From Chloropicon primus (lineage: Eukaryota), in the NCBI GenBank assembly GCA_023205875.1, contig CP060762.1, forward strand, positions 620,001-684,000: a stretch of DNA of 64,000 nucleotides. The letters run 5' to 3'. Positions 14,571 through 22,677 of the stretch are shown here, piece after piece. Both the position numbers and the translations under genes were made by a program. The notes beneath the pieces were generated by a model. It was given only the letters and a program-made list of their open reading frames with translations. It ran no database searches and was not told the DNA's origin. Each line of letters opens with the position of its first letter. The stretch's first letter is position 1.

Positions 14571-14794
14571 TGGGATCATAGAATGAATCACAGGGCCCAC
14601 GACGTAGGTGTTTCTCTCGTAGGTGTCTTTTATTATTGTGATCACTTTGTAACTGTTGTGTATTGTATAGTATTTTTGTGTGAAAGAGCACGAGAAGACG
14701 CTTCCTTCTCTCTTTTCCTCCGCTTCTCTCTTTTCCTCCGCCGCGCGCTCCCGTCCTCGTTCGTTTCTCTCGTTCTCGTCCCACGAGACAGAGA

Positions 14795-14818
14795 CCGTTA
14801 GGATGTTTTCAGCGGAAG
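14795..14818 (+). repeat. Left boundary repeat CCGTTAGGATG-TT-TTCAGCGGAAG
   Basis: Imperfect direct repeat of 16386-16414; its core is the reverse complement of CATCCTAA at 16457 and 19905. Confidence 0.7.
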
Positions 14819-14881
14819 TTCTAGAAATCCGACAGAGCAAGAAACAAAGGGGGGGGGTCGCTTCAAGAGGGAGAGGATTGG

Positions 14882-16375
14882 ATGAAGCCACTGTCGAGGC
14901 CATCTCTGAATGCTTCCGGAAGGCTTGCGGTCGTCAGGGGGAGAAGTTCTCCTTCGATGGAGAACCTCGCCCCCAAAATTGTCACGGCCGCGGAGGATGA
15001 CTCTCCCTTTTATCGCTGTCCATGTAAGAAGGCTTGTGCTAAACAATGTCTTTGCCGATGTGTTTGCTCGTACTGCAAAAACATTCGTCCATGTCTCCTG
15101 GGGTCGTCAGAGGCAATGCAAGACAATCCCTTTCATGCCACGGCTTGCGATTGTCAGCTGTGCAACAACGAGGGGAAGAGTCCTGTGTGCGGGAAGAGGA
15201 AGGCGAGCAGCGACCCCACCGTGGATTCTCTTGTCAACTCGTGGAAAGATTGGAACCCTCTCTTCGGAAAATGGAAGAACCGGCGTCGAAGATGCCACCC
15301 GTCCAAGGAAGGACGAGAACTTCCTCGGGGAGTGTCCAAGCATGGTGCTGAAAGGTACCATGCGACGATTAAAGGACTATTGGTTCCGAACAAAGTATCG
15401 TCATTGGGAACCTTCGACACCAAGGAAGCAGCCGCGGCGCGATACGACCTCGCTGCTACCTTGTCTCACGGGAGAGCAGCGATGCTGAATGGCGAAGTGG
15501 ACGAGAACCTCCTTGCCAAGTTTGGAAAGAAGACGCCCGAGGAACGATATGAAATGGCGATTGATCTCGTATCAGGTTGTCAGGGGGAAGCATTCCGCGA
15601 ATATCTCGACCAGGAGGAACAAAAGAGTCCTGTGTGCGGGAAGAGGAAGGCGAGCAGCGACCTCACCGTGGATTCTCTTGTCAACTCGTGGAAAGATTGG
15701 AACCCTCTCTTCGGAAAACTGAAGGACCAGCGTCCCAGTTGTAACCTGCCCAAGGAAGGACGAGAACTTCCTCGGGGAGTGGATAAGATGGATAAGCATG
15801 TGGAAAAGCATGATGAAAAGTACGATGTGAGGATTAGAGGACTATTGTTTCCGAACGTTATATCGACTTTGGGACGTGGGGTGGAGACCAAGGAAGCAGC
15901 CGCGGCGCGATACGACCTCGCCGCTACGTTGTATTACGGGAGAGCCGCAGAACTCAATGGCAAAAGAGACGACAAAATTCTTGACAAAATGCTGAGAGAC
16001 TTCGCTGCTATGTTGTTTCCCGGGAAAGCCGCGAAACCCAATGGCAAAAGGGACGGGAAACTACTTGACAAAGTACTTGACGACCTCGCTGCTGCATTGC
16101 CTCACGGGAGAGCCACGAAACCCAATGGCAAAAGGAACGGGAAACTACTTGACAAGCTGCTTGACGAGTTTGGAAAGAGGACGCCCGAGGAACGATTTGA
16201 AATGGCTGTTAAGCAAGTACGAGGTAAGAAGTGGAAAGGATTTCACCGCCAATTACTCGACCGGAAGAAGAAACAAAAGATACAGAGAGAAGAAACAGAG
16301 AGAAGAGAGGAGGAGGAGGGGGAATCAGAAGCGAAGGTCGACGACAGGTTCGTCGTGAGACATTGTCTTGGTTAA
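14882..16375 (+). CDS. Cys-rich N-terminus + two AP2/ERF-like DNA-binding domains (internal duplication)
   Basis: LPRGVSKHGAERYHATI...LGTFDTKEAAAARYDLAA...GRAAMLN is an AP2 consensus. A second copy lies 447 nt downstream (15176 vs 15623), followed by three NGKR.GK.LDK subrepeats. Confidence 0.85.
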   Translation: MKPLSRPSLNASGRLAVVRGRSSPSMENLAPKIVTAAEDDSPFYRCPCKKACAKQCLCRCVCSYCKNIRPCLLGSSEAMQDNPFHATACDCQLCNNEGKSPVCGKRKASSDPTVDSLVNSWKDWNPLFGKWKNRRRRCHPSKEGRELPRGVSKHGAERYHATIKGLLVPNKVSSLGTFDTKEAAAARYDLAATLSHGRAAMLNGEVDENLLAKFGKKTPEERYEMAIDLVSGCQGEAFREYLDQEEQKSPVCGKRKASSDLTVDSLVNSWKDWNPLFGKLKDQRPSCNLPKEGRELPRGVDKMDKHVEKHDEKYDVRIRGLLFPNVISTLGRGVETKEAAAARYDLAATLYYGRAAELNGKRDDKILDKMLRDFAAMLFPGKAAKPNGKRDGKLLDKVLDDLAAALPHGRATKPNGKRNGKLLDKLLDEFGKRTPEERFEMAVKQVRGKKWKGFHRQLLDRKKKQKIQREETERREEEEGESEAKVDDRFVVRHCLG

Positions 16376-16385
16376 AACATTCCAC

Positions 16386-16414
16386 CCGTTAGGATGATTC
16401 AGATTCAGCGGAAG
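16386..16414 (+). repeat. Second copy of boundary repeat CCGTTAGGATG-ATTCAGA-TTCAGCGGAAG
   Basis: Lies immediately after the AP2 gene stop; matches 14795-14818 with a short internal duplication. Confidence 0.7.
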
Positions 16415-16457
16415 GGAGAAGGAGAAACCAGAAGAGAAGGAGAGAGCAGAGAGGGTC

Positions 16458-16493
16458 ATCCTAAGGTCGCGGGTTCGATCCCCGCCGAAGGCA
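16458..16493 (+). tRNA. Orphan tRNA 3' half (positions 38-73), identity undetermined
   Basis: A-TCCTA-AGGTC-GCGGG-TTCGATC-CCCGC-CGAAGGC-A: exactly 36 nt with a perfect T-arm and acceptor 3' strand. No matching 5' half (GCCTTCG...TAGGA) seen nearby. Confidence 0.75.
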
Positions 16494-16673
16494 CATCTCG
16501 GCAGCAACGAACACAAGTTGCTCTCCAACCATGGTTCAAAATGACACGGGAAACTCCGACCCGTGATACACTTCCGACCTCTAGTACGGGGATCACATCC
16601 GGTGTCGAAACAACACCGCGGCGAAACAACAGCCGCCTTACCTCTTGCTCCGTGAGACAAGGGTTCTGTGAGA

Positions 16674-16797
16674 GACGTTAGTTATACAAGGATCACAACG
16701 AGATCGTAACGGCGGAGGACGGCGAGGACGACGACGGCGACTGACGTTAGTTATACAAGGATCACAACGAGATCGTAACGGCGGAGGACGGCGAGGA
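16674..16797. repeat. 55-bp exact direct repeat, 69-bp period
   Basis: GACGTTAGTTATACAAGGATCACAACGAGATCGTAACGGCGGAGGACGGCGAGGA at 16674 and 16743. Confidence 0.9.
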
Positions 16798-16921
16798 GGA
16801 CGGCGAGGAGGTGTGTGACCTGGCGGGAGCTGGAGAGAGAAAGAGAGCCGCCGTAACGCCAGAGCCGCGAACGAGGCGGCCGACGAGTGGGGACGAGAAG
16901 ACCACGACCAGAGAGAAAGCG

Positions 16922-18190
16922 ATGAGTTACCTCCTGGAATACTTCGGCCGCTGGTTGCCGACGAAGAAGAGGAGACTGACGAATACTGGGACGTCATGTG
17001 AAGAAGGGGCTGGTGGCGCCACCCCGGCCGCGGTTCTCCAGGTGGGTGGCGCCCAAGGATGGCGGGTGGCGCCCAAGGATTGTGGTGCCAATGTCTCTGT
17101 CTTCACCCACTTGCAGGGCAGCGGGCAGCCGTGCGGCGCGGTGGCACTCGGAACAAGCCTGGACACCAACGCTTGCACAGTGGCCCTGGCGATCTCCGCG
17201 GGACCTCATAGGGAGCGGGAGATGGCCGCCATCGAGGAAAACGTGGATCCGACGACGCTTCTCAATGCGGATGGACTTCTTGCCTCTCTTCGCTTCGCAG
17301 ACGACGAATCAGCTGGCGCGCGGCCCACCCTTGCACGCGAGGGTACACGGGCGGAGCGAACTCGCGAGCCTGAGGAGCTGACCCTGGTCCGCGTGGTCCG
17401 AGGCCGTGGCGGAGTCCACCTGGAGCGCGTTGAGGGCTTGAAAGAACTGACCCACTGCATCGTCTTCCTCCGCGAGTCCCTTGCGCAGGAGGGGCTTGGG
17501 AACAAGCTCGCTGGTCAGGCGGCCACGATCTCAAGCGCGTTGCTCGGCAAAGATCTTCCTAAACAGGTGAAAGCATTTCGTTTCGTGGAGCTTGGGACCG
17601 CCAGCCGCTCGCGATGCCTCAAGGACCGCAAAGTTCTTACGAAAGCTCTTGCCCTTGCGAAGGAGAAGGGCGAGCCTTGCGCGCTTCTTGTAGCTGCCTT
17701 GTCGCGATTGTCGAGACGGTCACAAGCTGACGAGGACCTCGACTACCTTGCTGAGCGCGCAGGGCAGGCCTCTATACTGGCGTGTATCCCGACGTCCCAT
17801 GCAGCAGCTTTGATTGGGGAGGAAAAGAAAGAGGAGCTCAAAAAGTACATGAGCAAGGCTGCAAGCACCTCGGACGGGCAAGCCGTGTACTCGGCGTCGC
17901 ACTGCATGCTCAAGTCCGGCGCCACCCGTTGTTCTGTAGCATCGGGCCAACACACTTCTGAGGAACTTTGTCTCCTCGTCGAACACGTCGAGCACGTCCT
18001 GAGGCACAAGCTGGAGAATCTGGAGAAGCCGGGGGAGCAGAAGCACGGGAAACCCCTTCTCCTCGTAGGTATTGCCCGTACGTCGCCTGGAACTGACGTC
18101 GCCAAGTCTACTTCGATATATGTCCAACGGTGCCTACTCCTCCACGTCCTCTCAAGGTGCGCGACAACCTTCAGAAGGATGTTGCGCTAA
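16922..18190 (+). CDS. Serine recombinase (resolvase-like) protein, 5' part: complete catalytic domain 1 and start of domain 2
   Basis: CIVFLRES (17471-17479)...LAGQ...FVELGTAS...DRKVL...LLVAALSRLSR (17699-17716) follows the YxRxS...Q...E.G.S...R..L...LDRLSR pattern. A second VGIARTS...SIYVQR occurs near the end. First ATG is at 16922 (frame open from 16811). Confidence 0.75.
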   Translation: MSYLLEYFGRWLPTKKRRLTNTGTSCEEGAGGATPAAVLQVGGAQGWRVAPKDCGANVSVFTHLQGSGQPCGAVALGTSLDTNACTVALAISAGPHREREMAAIEENVDPTTLLNADGLLASLRFADDESAGARPTLAREGTRAERTREPEELTLVRVVRGRGGVHLERVEGLKELTHCIVFLRESLAQEGLGNKLAGQAATISSALLGKDLPKQVKAFRFVELGTASRSRCLKDRKVLTKALALAKEKGEPCALLVAALSRLSRRSQADEDLDYLAERAGQASILACIPTSHAAALIGEEKKEELKKYMSKAASTSDGQAVYSASHCMLKSGATRCSVASGQHTSEELCLLVEHVEHVLRHKLENLEKPGEQKHGKPLLLVGIARTSPGTDVAKSTSIYVQRCLLLHVLSRCATTFRRMLR

Positions 18191-19773
18191 GCGGGAAGCT
18201 GCCGGTGATTGAAATCACAATTGGGACCTTTGCAGAGAAGTGTGGAGGCTCGACCTCGGAGGAGGCTGCCGTCCAAGAATGGGTGAAGAAGGTCTGCGAC
18301 GAGGGCAAATACGCAGGGGGCGTTCTACTCTGCACCCGTGCAGATCGGCTTACAAGGGAGCTTGCGACGCTCGGGACGCTCTTGGAAAGGTGCTGTAAGG
18401 CGAACATAGCAACGGTTGCGTGCTTGACAGAAGTGGATGCCGTCGTCACCGAGGAGAGACACGTTCAAGAGGCCGTAGCCCAGGTTCTCGCTGGAGATGA
18501 GGAGTATCTTCTTGGAAAGCGCTTTGTGGAGCAACGGGCGAGTGATCTCGTCCGCGCATGGAAGAACCAACCCACAGTTCGTGTGCTCGTCGCTGCTTGT
18601 TCCATCACGGAAGCGAACTACGACATCATTCTTCGCGAGGAGCACATGGAGTTCCTGGAGACCTACAGGCAATACTGCCACGTTCACTCCGTGAGGGACG
18701 AGTTGTTTGAAAACCGTGATGGACACGGCTTGGATGAAGACGCATTGAGCAGAGTCTTTGAGTACTTTGCGGATGCACTAAAGGGAGAACATGTCGATGT
18801 CGTGTTTGAGAATGAATGTTTCCCAGAAACCGCGATCTCTGTGACTCAAAAAGATTTCTTCGAATGCTCCTGCGCTGATAAATGCTCTCGCAAGTCGTCC
18901 AGGACAACAGGCACCGCGAACACCGCTCCAGCACATACTCGATGCATTTGTGGTTGTGACATGTGCAAGAGGAAGCGTCCTTGCATTCTGGTGGACAGCG
19001 ACGCCGAGGACGGCGGGGAGAGGGAGAGAGAGCTTCGGAAATTTGATGCCGCTGCATGTCCCTGTGAACGTTGCAGCAGCAGCCCCTTGAGCACTGGTAC
19101 GACAAGGAAGACACAGGCCAAGACCAACACGAAAGGGAAGAGGAAGGCCAAAGCAAGGAAGCCGATGAAGGAGTTTCCTCGACTTCCTACTACAGACGGT
19201 ACTCAAACCCTGCGCTGCATCTGCTGTGATGCTTTTCGTCGCCCTGAGTGCCCCTTGGTCAAAACAGGAGCTCTGACCCCGGTTCCTGGGGAGGAACGTG
19301 ATCGAGGTGGGCACAATCCCACTTGCCTCCTCTCGAACTGGTGCTGGTACTGCCACCGCTTCATCTTCAAAAGTGAGTTTAACCACTGGTGCTCGTTCGG
19401 ATGCTTCTTGAAAGCCACGAAGTTCGTGGACAAGAAGGAGCTTTGGGACATGAGCAAGGAAATTGGCATGACACAACTGAAGAACACGATTGGCTTCTGG
19501 TTTTGTGTTCCGTGTACAAAGAAACCTGAGTCCGAGAAAGCCTTGATCGAGAAGATCCCCTCGATCCCCTTGATCCCAACCAACGGTTCAAGGGGCTTGA
19601 GGTGCTTGTCCTGCAGTCATAACGATTGCAAAATCGGCAAGGGGTACAAGGAGAACGCAGAAGGAGGCGGCGTGAACGTTGGCTCCGGCCGGCAGAAGTC
19701 CGAGAACAGAAAGGCCAAAGAGGTAGTGACCCCGCATCCAATGCTCGTCAACATGATGCTACAGGACTCCTAA
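18130..19773 (+). CDS. Serine recombinase protein, 3' part (-1 frame): rest of catalytic domain 2, Cys-rich domain and zinc-finger-like clusters
   Basis: TFAEKCGGS...VLLCTRADRLTRELATL...LERCCKANIATVAC completes a resolvase domain. Followed by a CxCxxxC...CxCxCxxC...RPC...CxCxxC domain and several CxxC pairs. Overlaps the upstream ORF; no early ATG. Confidence 0.72.
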   Translation: MPTPPRPLKVRDNLQKDVALSGKLPVIEITIGTFAEKCGGSTSEEAAVQEWVKKVCDEGKYAGGVLLCTRADRLTRELATLGTLLERCCKANIATVACLTEVDAVVTEERHVQEAVAQVLAGDEEYLLGKRFVEQRASDLVRAWKNQPTVRVLVAACSITEANYDIILREEHMEFLETYRQYCHVHSVRDELFENRDGHGLDEDALSRVFEYFADALKGEHVDVVFENECFPETAISVTQKDFFECSCADKCSRKSSRTTGTANTAPAHTRCICGCDMCKRKRPCILVDSDAEDGGERERELRKFDAAACPCERCSSSPLSTGTTRKTQAKTNTKGKRKAKARKPMKEFPRLPTTDGTQTLRCICCDAFRRPECPLVKTGALTPVPGEERDRGGHNPTCLLSNWCWYCHRFIFKSEFNHWCSFGCFLKATKFVDKKELWDMSKEIGMTQLKNTIGFWFCVPCTKKPESEKALIEKIPSIPLIPTNGSRGLRCLSCSHNDCKIGKGYKENAEGGGVNVGSGRQKSENRKAKEVVTPHPMLVNMMLQDS

Positions 19774-19912
19774 GCCGATCCTAAAGACTATCCTAATCCT
19801 AATCCCCAAAAAGCAATCCTAAAGCTGAAATATTCTATCCTCCTCCACCACACTATGTATGTCTCCGTTGACCGCCGGCACATCGTTCGTTCGTTCGTTC
19901 GTTCCATCCTAA
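19768..19912. repeat. Cluster of ATCCTAA motifs and right boundary CATCCTAA
   Basis: ATCCTAA at 19778, 19790, 19796 and 19816; CATCCTAA at 19905-19912; (TTCG)n microsatellite just before the latter. Confidence 0.7.
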
Positions 19913-20619
19913 AAACGTCGTTCAGGTGACCTTCCTTCCACGATCATGGAACTTCGCATCAACAAACGAAACTCGGGGAGAGACAAGATTCAGTGAGGGA
20001 CTTGCAGAGTGTCTCCGCTGGACGCATCTCGCAATTCCAGCAGCAGCAGCAGCAGCAAGAAGAGGTGGCACCTGGCATCGATCGATCGATCGAGGAGCCC
20101 AGGTGGAGGGAGAACGAAGACCAACAGGAACAGGAACAGGCTTGTGACTTGTGGGGTGGCGTTGCGAACAACGGACGATCGGGCGGGAAGGGCGGGAGGG
20201 GGAGAGGGGGAGAGGGGGAGAGGGAGAGGGGTCACACCTTCACGCCGGTGGAGAGGCAAGGCGCGACCTTGGCACGCAGCATGTGATAAAGTCTTGCTGA
20301 GCTGGGTGTGGCCTCTCTCTCTCTCGATCTGCTGGGACTACGAAAGACGTTTCTTTTCCAGGGAGGGGAATTATGGGTCCTTCGATTGTACGATAGTCTC
20401 GTTTTTCAGATTAGATTAAGCTCTCGTCCGTCGATATTCCGGGCGTGTGAACAAAGATCCGATTCGCGTGAGGCCGTCGCACCCATCCCTGCACTCCTGC
20501 TGCGATACCATGCCACCAGCCTTGCCATACTCGCAGTTCATGTCCGTGACAAACTCATAGGTGCAAGGTGTGCGGCGGATGCACCGTTCCCCAAGCCAAA
20601 GGTGAAGACGGAGGCTCGA

Positions 20620-21406
20620 GAGCAAGGCATCTCGCTCTGAGGCGTGTTGGATGGATCCTCACCAACGTCTTCTTCTCGAGGTATCGTATGAAGCTCTGCA
20701 CAGCATGGAATCCGATTCTTCCTCGAGTTGGATGCATCAGAAACAGAGGATGGGTGTGATGGTGGGCATGTACACTCACTCAGCATGTTGAATACAGCAA
20801 TATCTATGCTGGTTATGGCCATAAGTCTGAGGCTCATGCGGTTACGTCAGGTTCTTTGGGTGTTTCTGCAGGGCGACTGTCCTTCACATATGGTTTGCAA
20901 GGAGCTTGTGCAGCTGTTGATACGGCTTGTTCATCCTCTCTTGTCGCAGCACACATGTCCTACATGAGCCTTGTTCTTGGCGACGTCTCGAAGGGACTAT
21001 ATACACAATATGCATCGCTTGCGTTCTCGGTCCTCTTGAAGATGGTTCCAAACAAGATACGGTGATGCTACGTGGCACTGCTGTGAACCAAGATGGGCGA
21101 TCCAGTGCTTTGACCGCACCGCACGGACCCTCTCAACAGCAAGTGATGCGTATGAGCTTGCACTCGGCAGACCTTGATGCCTGGAGTGCACAGGTCTTGC
21201 AGATGCACGGTACAGGTACTCCTCTTGGTGGCCCCATTGAGGTCGGTGCGGCATCTGCTGTGTTACTCTCCGAGGCCACCAAACGGGACTTCCCTGTCCA
21301 CATGTCTGGAGTGGAGAGCAATATGGGGCATAGTGAAGCAGCAGCTGGTATGGCTGGTATGGTTCAGCTCGCAGGCAATTTGCTGCGGTCTATGTCCTCC
21401 GTATAA
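20620..21406 (+). pseudogene. Decayed type I polyketide synthase ketosynthase (KS) fragment
   Basis: MDPHQRLLLEVSYEAL (20651), GRLSFTYGLQG...DTACSSSLVAAH, NQDGRSSALTAPHGPSQ, HGTGTPLG.PIE and SNMGHSEAAAG, spread across frames with frameshifts and deletions. Confidence 0.88.
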
Positions 21407-21420: not shown

Positions 21421-21514
21421 TTCGAGTGTAGCTCCTTAACCACTCGGACAACTCAGCAAGGGTTTTTGCTCGCTGAGTGCAGGATTCGAACCTGCGCGGC
21501 TGAAGCCACTACAT
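21421..21514 (-). tRNA. trnS-CGA: Circularly permuted tRNA-Ser(CGA): 3' half 21514-21471, 13-nt spacer, 5' half 21457-21421
   Basis: Minus strand reads A-TGTAG-TGGCTTCAGCCGC-GCAGG-TTCGAAT-CCTGC-ACTCAGC-G, then AGCAAAAACCCTT, then GCTGAGT-TG-TCCGAGTGGTTAAGGAG-CTACA-CT-CGA-A. Acceptor (GCTGAGT/ACTCAGC) and anticodon (CTACA/TGTAG) stems pair; long variable arm. Confidence 0.93.
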
Positions 21515-21655: not shown

Positions 21656-22309
21656 ATGGCTCCTGCTCCTGCTCCTGCTCAGGACCCCCGGCTTTCGGTC
21701 ATCCGCGGGACGATCCGGGAGGTTCCCAACTTTCCGAAGGATGGTATCCTGTTCCAGGACATCACGACGACGTTGCTGGACCCCGTGGCGTTCGGGCACT
21801 GCATCGAGTTGCTGTACGAGAGGTACAGGGACAAGGGCGTGGACGTGGTGGCTGGTTTCGAGGCGAGGGGGTTGATTTTCGGCGCTCCGCTCTCGCTGCG
21901 GCTCAAGTGCGCCTTCGTGCCCCTGCGGAAGCCCAAGAAGCTCCCTGGAGAAACGATTGGGGAGGCGTACGACTTGGAGTACGGCTCGGACAGGATCGAG
22001 ATGCACGTGGGGCACGTCAAGGAGGGCGACAGGGTGAGTGGCGGCGCCTCTCCGCCTCGTGGCGAGCCTCGACGGACTGACTTTCTCTCTCTCTCTCTTT
22101 CTCAAAAACCTAACCTGCAGGTTTTGCTGGTGGACGACCTCATCGCGACGGGGGGAACCATGGTCGCCGGCATCAAGCTGATGAAGAAGGTGAAGGCCGA
22201 GATCGTGGAGGCGGCCTGCATCCTGGAGCTTCCCTTGCTCAAGGGGAAGGACAAGCTGGTGGAGCACGACGTGAGCCTCTACACCATGGTGGAGAAGGAC
22301 GTCTTGTGA
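21656..22309 (+). CDS. APT: Adenine phosphoribosyltransferase, 2 exons (intron 22034-22120)
   Basis: PNFPKDGILFQDIT, GFEARG, LEYG and VLLVDDLIATGGT PRPP motif; 87-nt GTGAGT...CTAAC-CTGCAG intron. Confidence 0.95.
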   Translation: MAPAPAPAQDPRLSVIRGTIREVPNFPKDGILFQDITTTLLDPVAFGHCIELLYERYRDKGVDVVAGFEARGLIFGAPLSLRLKCAFVPLRKPKKLPGETIGEAYDLEYGSDRIEMHVGHVKEGDRVSGGASPPRGEPRRTDFLSLSLSQKPNLQVLLVDDLIATGGTMVAGIKLMKKVKAEIVEAACILELPLLKGKDKLVEHDVSLYTMVEKDVL

Positions 22310-22425
22310 CGACGAGGTGTACCAGGATTCCACACAAACACACACACACACACACATAACATAGAAGAAGGTTGTTCATATCATTCTTATTCATTCTTAT
22401 TCATTCTTATTCTTGTTCATTCCGA

Positions 22426-22677
22426 GAGATCGTGGAGGCGGCCTGCACCCTGGAGCTTCCCTTGTGAGCCTCTACACCATGGTGGAGAAGGACGTCACCT
22501 AATCATACGTCGGTCGGTCGTCACCTAATCATACGTCGGTCGGTCGTCACCTAATCATACGTCGGTCGTCACCTCATCATACGTCGGTCGGTCGGCCGTC
22601 ACTCACCTCATCATATGTCGGTCGGTCGGCCGTCACTCACCTCATAATACGTCGGTCGGTCGGTCGTCACTCACCTA
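22426..22677. repeat. Partial duplicate of APT 3' end followed by a minisatellite (GTCACCTAATCATACGTCGGTCG-like units)
   Basis: 22426-22496 copies 22199-22303 with an internal deletion; then about 6 units of 22-34 bp. Confidence 0.85.

Follow-up and report, generated by a model that had tools for sequence, protein, structure and literature searches.

A stretch of 64,000 nucleotides from the green alga Chloropicon primus (contig CP060762.1, positions 620,001 to 684,000 of the forward strand; this whole stretch is called the window, and positions are counted from its first letter) was analyzed with regard to an island of two adjoining genes, one encoding an AP2-type protein and the other a recombinase. 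Judged by its sequences, the recombinase belongs to a dispersed, multicopy family of about ten loci in the green-algal nucleus, and its members have two serine-recombinase domains; this larger point had been missed in an earlier note on the same DNA. Both proteins of the island share a module with eleven conserved cysteines (Cys). This module probably serves a dispersed Chloropicon element as the domain that binds zinc and the DNA ends; the element has a single, twin-recombinase gene and is likely self-moving, and the AP2 gene is likely a truncated offshoot.

The earlier note had described an unnamed Cys-rich domain common to both proteins, and this was confirmed on the + strand at the positions given in Table 1. 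When the two open reading frames (ORFs) were compared with BLASTP, the Cys module was the top match (32 bits, expectation value (E) 4e-5, 21/75 identities). The local score of the module pair was 91, which was reached by none of 20,000 full shuffles in each direction. When the Cys were kept fixed and the other residues were mixed, the score was reached by 0 of 20,000 shuffles of one side and by 1 of 20,000 shuffles of both sides. Thus, the Cys composition alone does not explain the likeness, and a compositional artefact was ruled out as its source. Invariant in the alignment were the eleven Cys, K, RPC, L, S, A and F.A.A, and the recombinase copy had insertions of 14 and 7 residues. Identical residues were encoded by the same codon in 9 of 21 cases, and no stringent DNA match between the two copies was found, in agreement with the previous observation that the Cys spacing, RPC and F.A.A are conserved while the DNA has diverged. 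Of 16 aligned proteins, 10 contain the complete module, and each of these has retained all 11 Cys. Eight sites within its 75 residues were variable, none of them a Cys (0/8), a number that is too small for significance. From the Cys count alone, the module is likely a zinc binder.

The CXC-type zinc clusters (TCR/CRC, MSL2-CXC, pre-SET and the CxC of KDZ transposases) resemble the module in their dense Cys, a C-x-C start and a C-x-C-x2-C end, which would fit the view that it is a wider, CXC-like algal zinc domain without a profile, gained separately by each gene and thus no marker of common descent. CXC/TCR, pre-SET, zf-CXXC and CxC are families with Pfam profiles, and the comparison with CXC/TCR and pre-SET profiles that the earlier note had proposed yielded nothing, since neither copy matched any Pfam family at E<=1. 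Neither copy matched the PHROGs, a profile of the two copies matched 0 PDB chains at E<=10, the Atlas gave no usable match, and in the six frames of the window the two-copy profile found nothing further below E 0.01. Unlike the CXC-type clusters, the module has 11 rather than 9 shared Cys and a different spacing, and at the level of sequence it matches none of the profiled families of this type. A profile search over 1.84 billion representative proteins gave 7 matches, i.e., two named C. primus proteins, one representative of a cluster that includes a C. primus member, and four proteins without a name; in the matches outside C. primus the best-matching stretch was never on the module. A leave-one-out test revealed that this search would miss modules diverged as far as these two, which leaves room for a wider domain. 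Against separate gain, the likeness passes collinearly beyond the Cys into the preceding segment, the two genes adjoin and share an 8-mer, and Pfam, PHROG and PDB matches were lacking; this explanation was regarded as quite improbable. The AlphaFold2 model of the module had a predicted local distance difference test (pLDDT) value of 37.5, too low for use, and a complex prediction with two modules and four Zn, in which alignments were not used, had a score of 0.00, which is evidence neither way.

The likeness between the two genes continues for about 45 residues upstream of the module, in a different frame. The ATG at 14803 opens this frame, and its residues 23-54 align with residues 601-632 of the intact recombinase P0013, directly before the module. 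The upstream frame scored 39, whereas each of the two remaining frames scored 20, and the score of 39 was reached by 35 of 20,000 shuffles when compared with the 100 residues before the module. A paralog contig of the DNA run X1 is 1 nt short at 14975, which brings the upstream frame into register with the module; the summed depth at this indel was 150.7 of 261.3, and the remaining sequence agrees with the window. The choice of the upstream frame is thus independently backed, because the indel of the paralog picks the same frame. Read through with an X, the two proteins aligned over 123 columns (39.3 bits, E 1.5e-8). C-terminal to the module they diverge, with AP2-like repeats in one protein and a basic stretch plus further Cys/His pairs in the other. 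As the upstream likeness lies in the very frame that is joined by the 1-nt indel of the paralog, the AP2 gene is likely related to the recombinase gene as a truncated form with a swapped tail, i.e., an offshoot in which the catalytic half would have disappeared and AP2-like repeats would have been acquired.

The AP2 identity proposed in the earlier note corresponds to a PF00847 match with a score below the Pfam cut-off (Table 1). HNH-endonuclease families of the PHROGs also matched the AP2-like part (E 3e-7). No relatives of the AP2 ORF were found among proteins of 273-870 amino acids (aa), longer proteins (>870 aa) being outside this search, and a comparison with 73 shorter candidates retrieved only 2 generic AP2 proteins, both carrying PF00847. 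In the window the AP2 gene is frameshifted and looks as if it were decaying.

Several further features of this gene were observed. A 38-nt hairpin-like inverted repeat (84%) is located at 14937-14974, directly before the frame break. At the 3' end of the AP2 unit (16300-16376) the summed depth in X1 was 5,134 at position 16342, which suggests a short repeat with far more copies. In a recombinase subfamily (P0006, P0008, P0018, P0024) the proteins close with an acidic EES stretch that resembles this end. The left edge of the island is marked by a pyrimidine-rich stretch of about 43 nt (14716-14758), which occurs in many contigs with differing flanks (X1, X4, X5) and is perhaps a common promoter or 5'-untranslated-region motif.

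Table 1. Positions of the features of the island in the window.
Feature	Position	Strand	Remarks
Candidate 8-bp core CATCCTAA, left of AP2 gene	14798..14805	-	+ strand gives ATG at 14803; in longer imperfect direct repeat with 16386-16414
Upstream frame of AP2 gene	14803..14974	+	resembles recombinase segment before module (P0013 601-632); out of frame here
Body of AP2-like ORF	14975..16375	+	stop-to-stop 14825-16375: Cys module, two ~447-bp linker+AP2-like units, 84-bp repeats
11-Cys module, AP2-gene copy	15008..15163	+	12 Cys in this copy; inside ORF 14825-16375
First AP2-like domain	15323..15457	+	Pfam PF00847 19 bits, under cut-off 33.3
Candidate 8-bp core CATCCTAA, right of AP2 gene	16389..16396	-	
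Candidate 8-bp core CATCCTAA, left of recombinase gene	16457..16464	+	overlaps tRNA-like piece
tRNA 3'-half-like piece	16458..16493	+	variable loop, T arm, acceptor 3' strand
Two 63-nt direct repeats 69 nt apart, element leader	16674..16805	+	
Twin serine-recombinase gene	16922..19773	+	intact relatives (P0013, P0014) have ~950 aa; here broken by a 1-nt frame shift near 18150
Serine-recombinase domain 1	17465..17716	+	FLRES (R184, S186) to ALSRLSR (S261 replacing Asp, R262, R265)
Serine-recombinase domain 2	18071..18357	+	IARTS (R386, S388) to RADRLTR (D475, R476, R479)
Segment preceding recombinase Cys module	18721..18855	+	common to upstream frame of AP2 gene
11-Cys module, recombinase copy	18856..19074	+	inside ORF 18097-19773
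Further Cys/His pairs CICCD, CWYCH..CSFGC, CVPC, CLSC	19216..19614	+	likely zinc fingers; no profile match
Four ATCCTAA copies directly behind stop codon	19778..19822	+	
Candidate 8-bp core CATCCTAA, right of recombinase gene	19905..19912	+	

The second gene had been called a recombinase before, which was correct, but its two catalytic domains and its 1-nt frame break had been overlooked. Intact copies have 949-950 aa. The Pfam family PF00239 (Resolvase) matched P0013 in 2 stretches with 41 bits (cut-off 23.3) and the two halves of the window's recombinase with 17.5 and 26.4 bits, and in the Atlas a Resolvase feature was present in 28 of 30 recombinase matches. The R-x-S nucleophile and the D-R-x-x-R positions have a catalytic role in serine recombinases. 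In comparison with the F-plasmid recombinase, domain 2 has kept both motifs (the first one via pairwise alignment), and domain 1 has kept R-x-S and both Arg, with Ser for Asp, which is the same in the distant relative P0023. The serine nucleophile and the arginines are named for serine recombinases also in PMC4058570. By profile and motifs, the gene product belongs to the serine recombinase superfamily. The frame break near 18150 was absent from the contigs of three of the four runs, while the fourth run had no cover there; an intron at this position was ruled out, because the three runs carry one more base. Among four long copies, domain 2 together with the linker had 0/230 variable sites, versus 12/155 in domain 1 and 47/475 elsewhere. 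Some 85 residues separate the module from the second catalytic domain in front of it, and the basic stretch follows it. The AlphaFold2 model of the whole protein (pLDDT 33.1) was too low in quality for use.

The nearest named records for the window's recombinase were C. primus proteins with up to 97% identity. According to supplementary file S1 of PMC12301720, which was available in part, the family corresponds to two C. primus-specific orthogroups, OG0000040/45, with 28 genes, all but one of them annotated as 'hypothetical'; sequences were seen for 22 of the 28. In the available part of the same annotation, and with adjacent genes merged, 9 recombinase loci are present in CCMP1205 and 11 in RCC138, and 8 of these match between the strains by chromosome and gene number, leaving one locus of CCMP1205 (02p16300) and three of RCC138 (03g27050, 14g72430 and 16g76820) unmatched. 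Several annotated copies are split in two. A contig of X1 skips 18065-18503 and thereby lacks the two domain-2 motifs; its depth was 550 versus 572 for the intact form (contig depth is no copy number), and this similar depth indicates that copies without the second active site appear to have spread. In a subfamily of copies this stretch has been lost or replaced. The G+C content at third codon positions (GC3) was 0.55 in the AP2 gene and 0.64-0.68 in the recombinase gene, versus 0.79-0.89 in six host ORFs.

Judged by their sequences, the distant members P0023 and P0022 extend the family beyond C. primus. P0023, with an identity of about 30%, aligns in collinear order across domain 1 and as far as the R-T-S motif of domain 2, and thus the twin layout is old. 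Another relative, P0019 (353 aa), has 55% identity over domain 1, and its residues 1-175 form a different, longer N-terminus, for which nothing was found in Pfam; it contains a W-T-x-x-E stretch that looks Myb-like. On the sequence level, this N-terminus is a further case of module swapping in the family. Locus scans of viral contigs (with P0013, the AP2 ORF, P0023, P0029 and one DNA pattern), of metagenome contigs (with P0013 and P0029) and of prokaryote genomes (with P0023) gave no confirmed relative. A tblastn search of P0013 in phages and plasmids retrieved nothing, and sequence searches of the PDB had no match under E 0.4.

The family was compared with known systems. According to a 2026 review (PMC13565253), no eukaryotic DNA transposon other than IS607EU is known to employ a serine recombinase. 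The Chloropicon element resembles IS607 and IS607EU in having a serine recombinase as likely mover, in its eukaryotic occurrence and in that no terminal inverted repeats were seen. According to PMC13565253, PMC3673617 and PMC3627910, TnpA of IS607 has an N-terminal MerR-type helix-turn-helix (HTH) and one resolvase domain and is accompanied by TnpB/Fanzor2. In contrast, the Chloropicon element has one gene for about 950 aa with two catalytic domains, the Cys modules behind them and an 8-bp candidate core. A MerR-type HTH was not found, as Pfam at E<=10 gave only Resolvase. No IS607 model of NCBIfam matched the recombinase (only XisF, E 0.62). A TnpB/Fanzor2 gene was not detected either, the recombinase ORF filling 16922-19773 of the unit 16457-19912 (short antisense ORFs were not scanned), and the AP2 ORF had no TnpB match. 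IS607 and IS607EU have GG ends without target duplication; the window copy is flanked by an 8-mer, and the ends of the copies are not fixed. Membership in IS607 was rejected, because the element lacks the MerR HTH and TnpB and has two catalytic domains. For the Fanzor2 elements of C. primus, the passages of PMC10711439 that were examined report terminal inverted repeats and a non-IS607 nature, and nothing in them points to a twin-recombinase family.

There is also a similarity to Cryptons and CryptonS, which are eukaryotic, encode only a recombinase, carry one and the same short word at either end and are proposed to pass through a circular form (PMC13565253). Such a word is present at both ends of the window copy, and the ends of other copies vary. 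If the core reading holds, the Chloropicon element may work like a Crypton. However, Cryptons have a tyrosine recombinase, in contrast to the serine-recombinase domains found here, and membership was rejected because the recombinase type is wrong according to Pfam, NCBIfam and PHROG scans. In large serine recombinases and phage integrases, too, a large C-terminal region lies behind the catalytic domain, and in these enzymes it comprises two DNA-binding domains (PMC4058570). The Chloropicon protein differs in having two catalytic domains, another Cys pattern and no Pfam match to Recombinase or to the zinc ribbon. Membership among the large serine integrases was rejected by the Pfam domains, and a PHROG integrase match was confined to the catalytic part (E 0.035). 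With the resolvase/invertase family (PF00239) the R-x-S and (D)R-x-x-R motifs align, but the recombinase is about five times longer, its domain is duplicated, no HTH matched, and the setting is nuclear and eukaryotic. No description of a twin-recombinase family was found in the literature; the supplements of PMC6731263 and PMC10711439 and Repbase were outside this search and could hold one. The words 'recombinase' and 'resolvase' had no match in the main text of two Chloropicon genome papers.

A candidate for the site of recombination is the 8-mer CATCCTAA, which occurs four times in the 64 kb versus 0.52 expected (0/100 shuffles) and brackets the AP2 unit as well as the recombinase unit. DNA likeness between the ends of the two units beyond the 8-mer was rejected. 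Inside the left core of the recombinase unit starts a tRNA-like piece, for which no matching tRNA 5' half was found near 16458-16493. A contig of X1 joins AP2-type sequence at 15235 to the recombinase 3' end at 19755. Together with the upstream likeness and the bracketing by the same 8-mer, this supports the earlier suggestion that the AP2 gene could be a truncated relative of a recombinase gene; its C-terminal part differs.

In serine recombination the strands are exchanged within a tetramer of catalytic domains, and the DNA-binding domains of large serine recombinases are located behind the catalytic domain (both PMC4058570). The module also lies behind the catalytic domains and is followed by the basic stretch, and therefore DNA binding was preferred over protein pairing as its role. 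Two twin-domain molecules would supply the four catalytic domains for strand exchange, and the Cys module, the basic stretch and the later fingers would bind the ends of the element. Its excision would take place as a circle between the two CATCCTAA cores. Phage integrases commonly integrate near tRNA sequence, and the circle would find its new place at a core, in many cases with tRNA sequence as a neighbour. AP2-type units and copies that lack the second active site would be mobilized in trans. Tentatively, and with slightly less than even confidence, we propose that such elements would constitute a new superfamily of eukaryotic DNA transposons, with a twin-domain gene, an 11-Cys zinc DNA-binding module, an 8-bp core, circles, a preference for tRNAs in a compact genome, and mobilization of core-bounded cassettes such as the AP2 offshoot.

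Several points weigh against the self-moving element and its offshoot. The 8-mer was the only one common to the four boundary zones, and any shared 8-mer was found in 95 of 20,000 random zone sets, but this figure is optimistic, since the motif and the zones were picked after looking. The left core of the recombinase unit overlaps the tRNA-like sequence, and thus one of the four matches may be incidental. Among the loose ends listed (6 of 47 and 24 of 161), other copies leave the window sequence at 16452, 16618, 16643 and 16686 on the left side and at 19902 and 19920 on the right side, and 5-8 bases beyond the core are common to some copies, which is unexpected for a clean core-bounded end. 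Joints of an empty site or a circle were absent among the joints listed (10; 15 of 24), and the joint of 15235 and 19755 is a single contig with a short side of 30 nt. As to the recombinase, domain 1 has Ser at the position of the resolvase Asp67, gene conversion or the assembly might account for the lack of variation in domain 2, and the unmatched loci of the two strains rest on annotation, not on DNA. The likeness of the two genes upstream of the module is weak on its own when compared with the whole protein (358 of 5,000 shuffles; BLASTP E 0.036). The two internal AP2 repeats differ in 9 amino-acid-changing codons versus 1 silent codon of 53, and with most differences changing amino acids the AP2 gene may be dead. 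Lastly, when the AP2 module was compared with a profile of the recombinase copies only, HMMER with composition correction left 1.2 bits. The significance after correction for Cys, which the earlier note had made decisive for its claim, was thus upheld by the Cys-fixed shuffles and not by HMMER, and the case for a shared module rests on these shuffles and the separate upstream likeness.

It is also conceivable, albeit unlikely, that the serine recombinase is not the mover and that both genes are passengers of a non-autonomous repeat family, be it tRNA-headed and similar to short interspersed nuclear elements, or a cut-and-paste element. Passengers would fit the different tRNA-like 3' ends that lie in other contigs directly before the leader at 16618 (twice), 16643 and 16686, the summed depth of the leader (16689-17036) and of the AP2 3' end (16342), which was far above that of the gene body (again no copy number), and the joint between a polyketide-synthase fragment and the leader (16582-20927) in the two runs X4 and X5. 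In addition, capture of Fanzor2 by cut-and-paste elements of C. primus is reported in PMC10711439. The catalytic motifs of the recombinase are, however, intact, its domain 2 is invariant, a distant relative keeps the twin layout, and the island ORFs scanned included no transposase or reverse transcriptase, all of which argues against mere passengers.

The orientation of the four cores raises another explanation, i.e., a coupled two-gene switch, in which either gene could be inverted or excised and the AP2 protein would regulate the recombinase by pairing of the modules. The outer cores at 14798 (-) and 19905 (+) form an inverted pair that encloses both genes, the inner cores form an inverted pair 60 nt apart, and the AP2 start codon lies inside a core. 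Yet the left flanks of other recombinase copies differ from that of the window, no strand-changing joint was present among the joints listed, and the AP2 gene is frameshifted in the window copy, and such a switch was considered very improbable. The first and the last of these observations also speak against a fixed system of two genes, into which, according to the earlier note, the module ties them, and the twin-recombinase element with a probable, seemingly decaying AP2 offshoot was retained as the preferred explanation.

If it is true, a second, structurally unrelated kind of eukaryotic serine-recombinase transposon would alter the list given in PMC13565253. Two serine-recombinase domains naturally joined in one chain would demonstrate how a four-subunit reaction can be built from two molecules, the twin recombinase could yield an integrase already adapted to the eukaryotic nucleus, and the module is a candidate for a new zinc-cluster fold. 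The intact copies P0013 and P0014, the candidate ends and the candidate empty sites in two published assemblies offer a cheap test.

Three features were seen to the right of the island. A broken ketosynthase fragment of a polyketide synthase (20630-21403, +, GC3 0.52) adjoins the T run of the tRNA gene described next and is possibly captured cargo. In X4 and X5, sequence like this fragment is joined to the element leader and followed by sequence that resembles the ends of AP2 units.

The tRNA gene is a circularly permuted tRNA-Ser(CGA) on the - strand (21421-21457 and 21471-21514), in which the 3' half precedes the 5' half, with 13 nt between them and a T run at the end. In its natural arrangement the gene escapes ARAGORN, but once the two halves are exchanged the program calls an 81-nt tRNA-Ser(cga). 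Four other green algae are known to have permuted tRNAs (PMC3978253), and the word 'permuted' had no match in the main text of the C. primus genome paper of 2019. Further downstream lies a phosphoribosyltransferase-like gene, named from the sequence and not by a scan, whose 3' end (about 22270-22320) is duplicated about 190 nt downstream (about 22460-22515) and followed by short tandem repeats.

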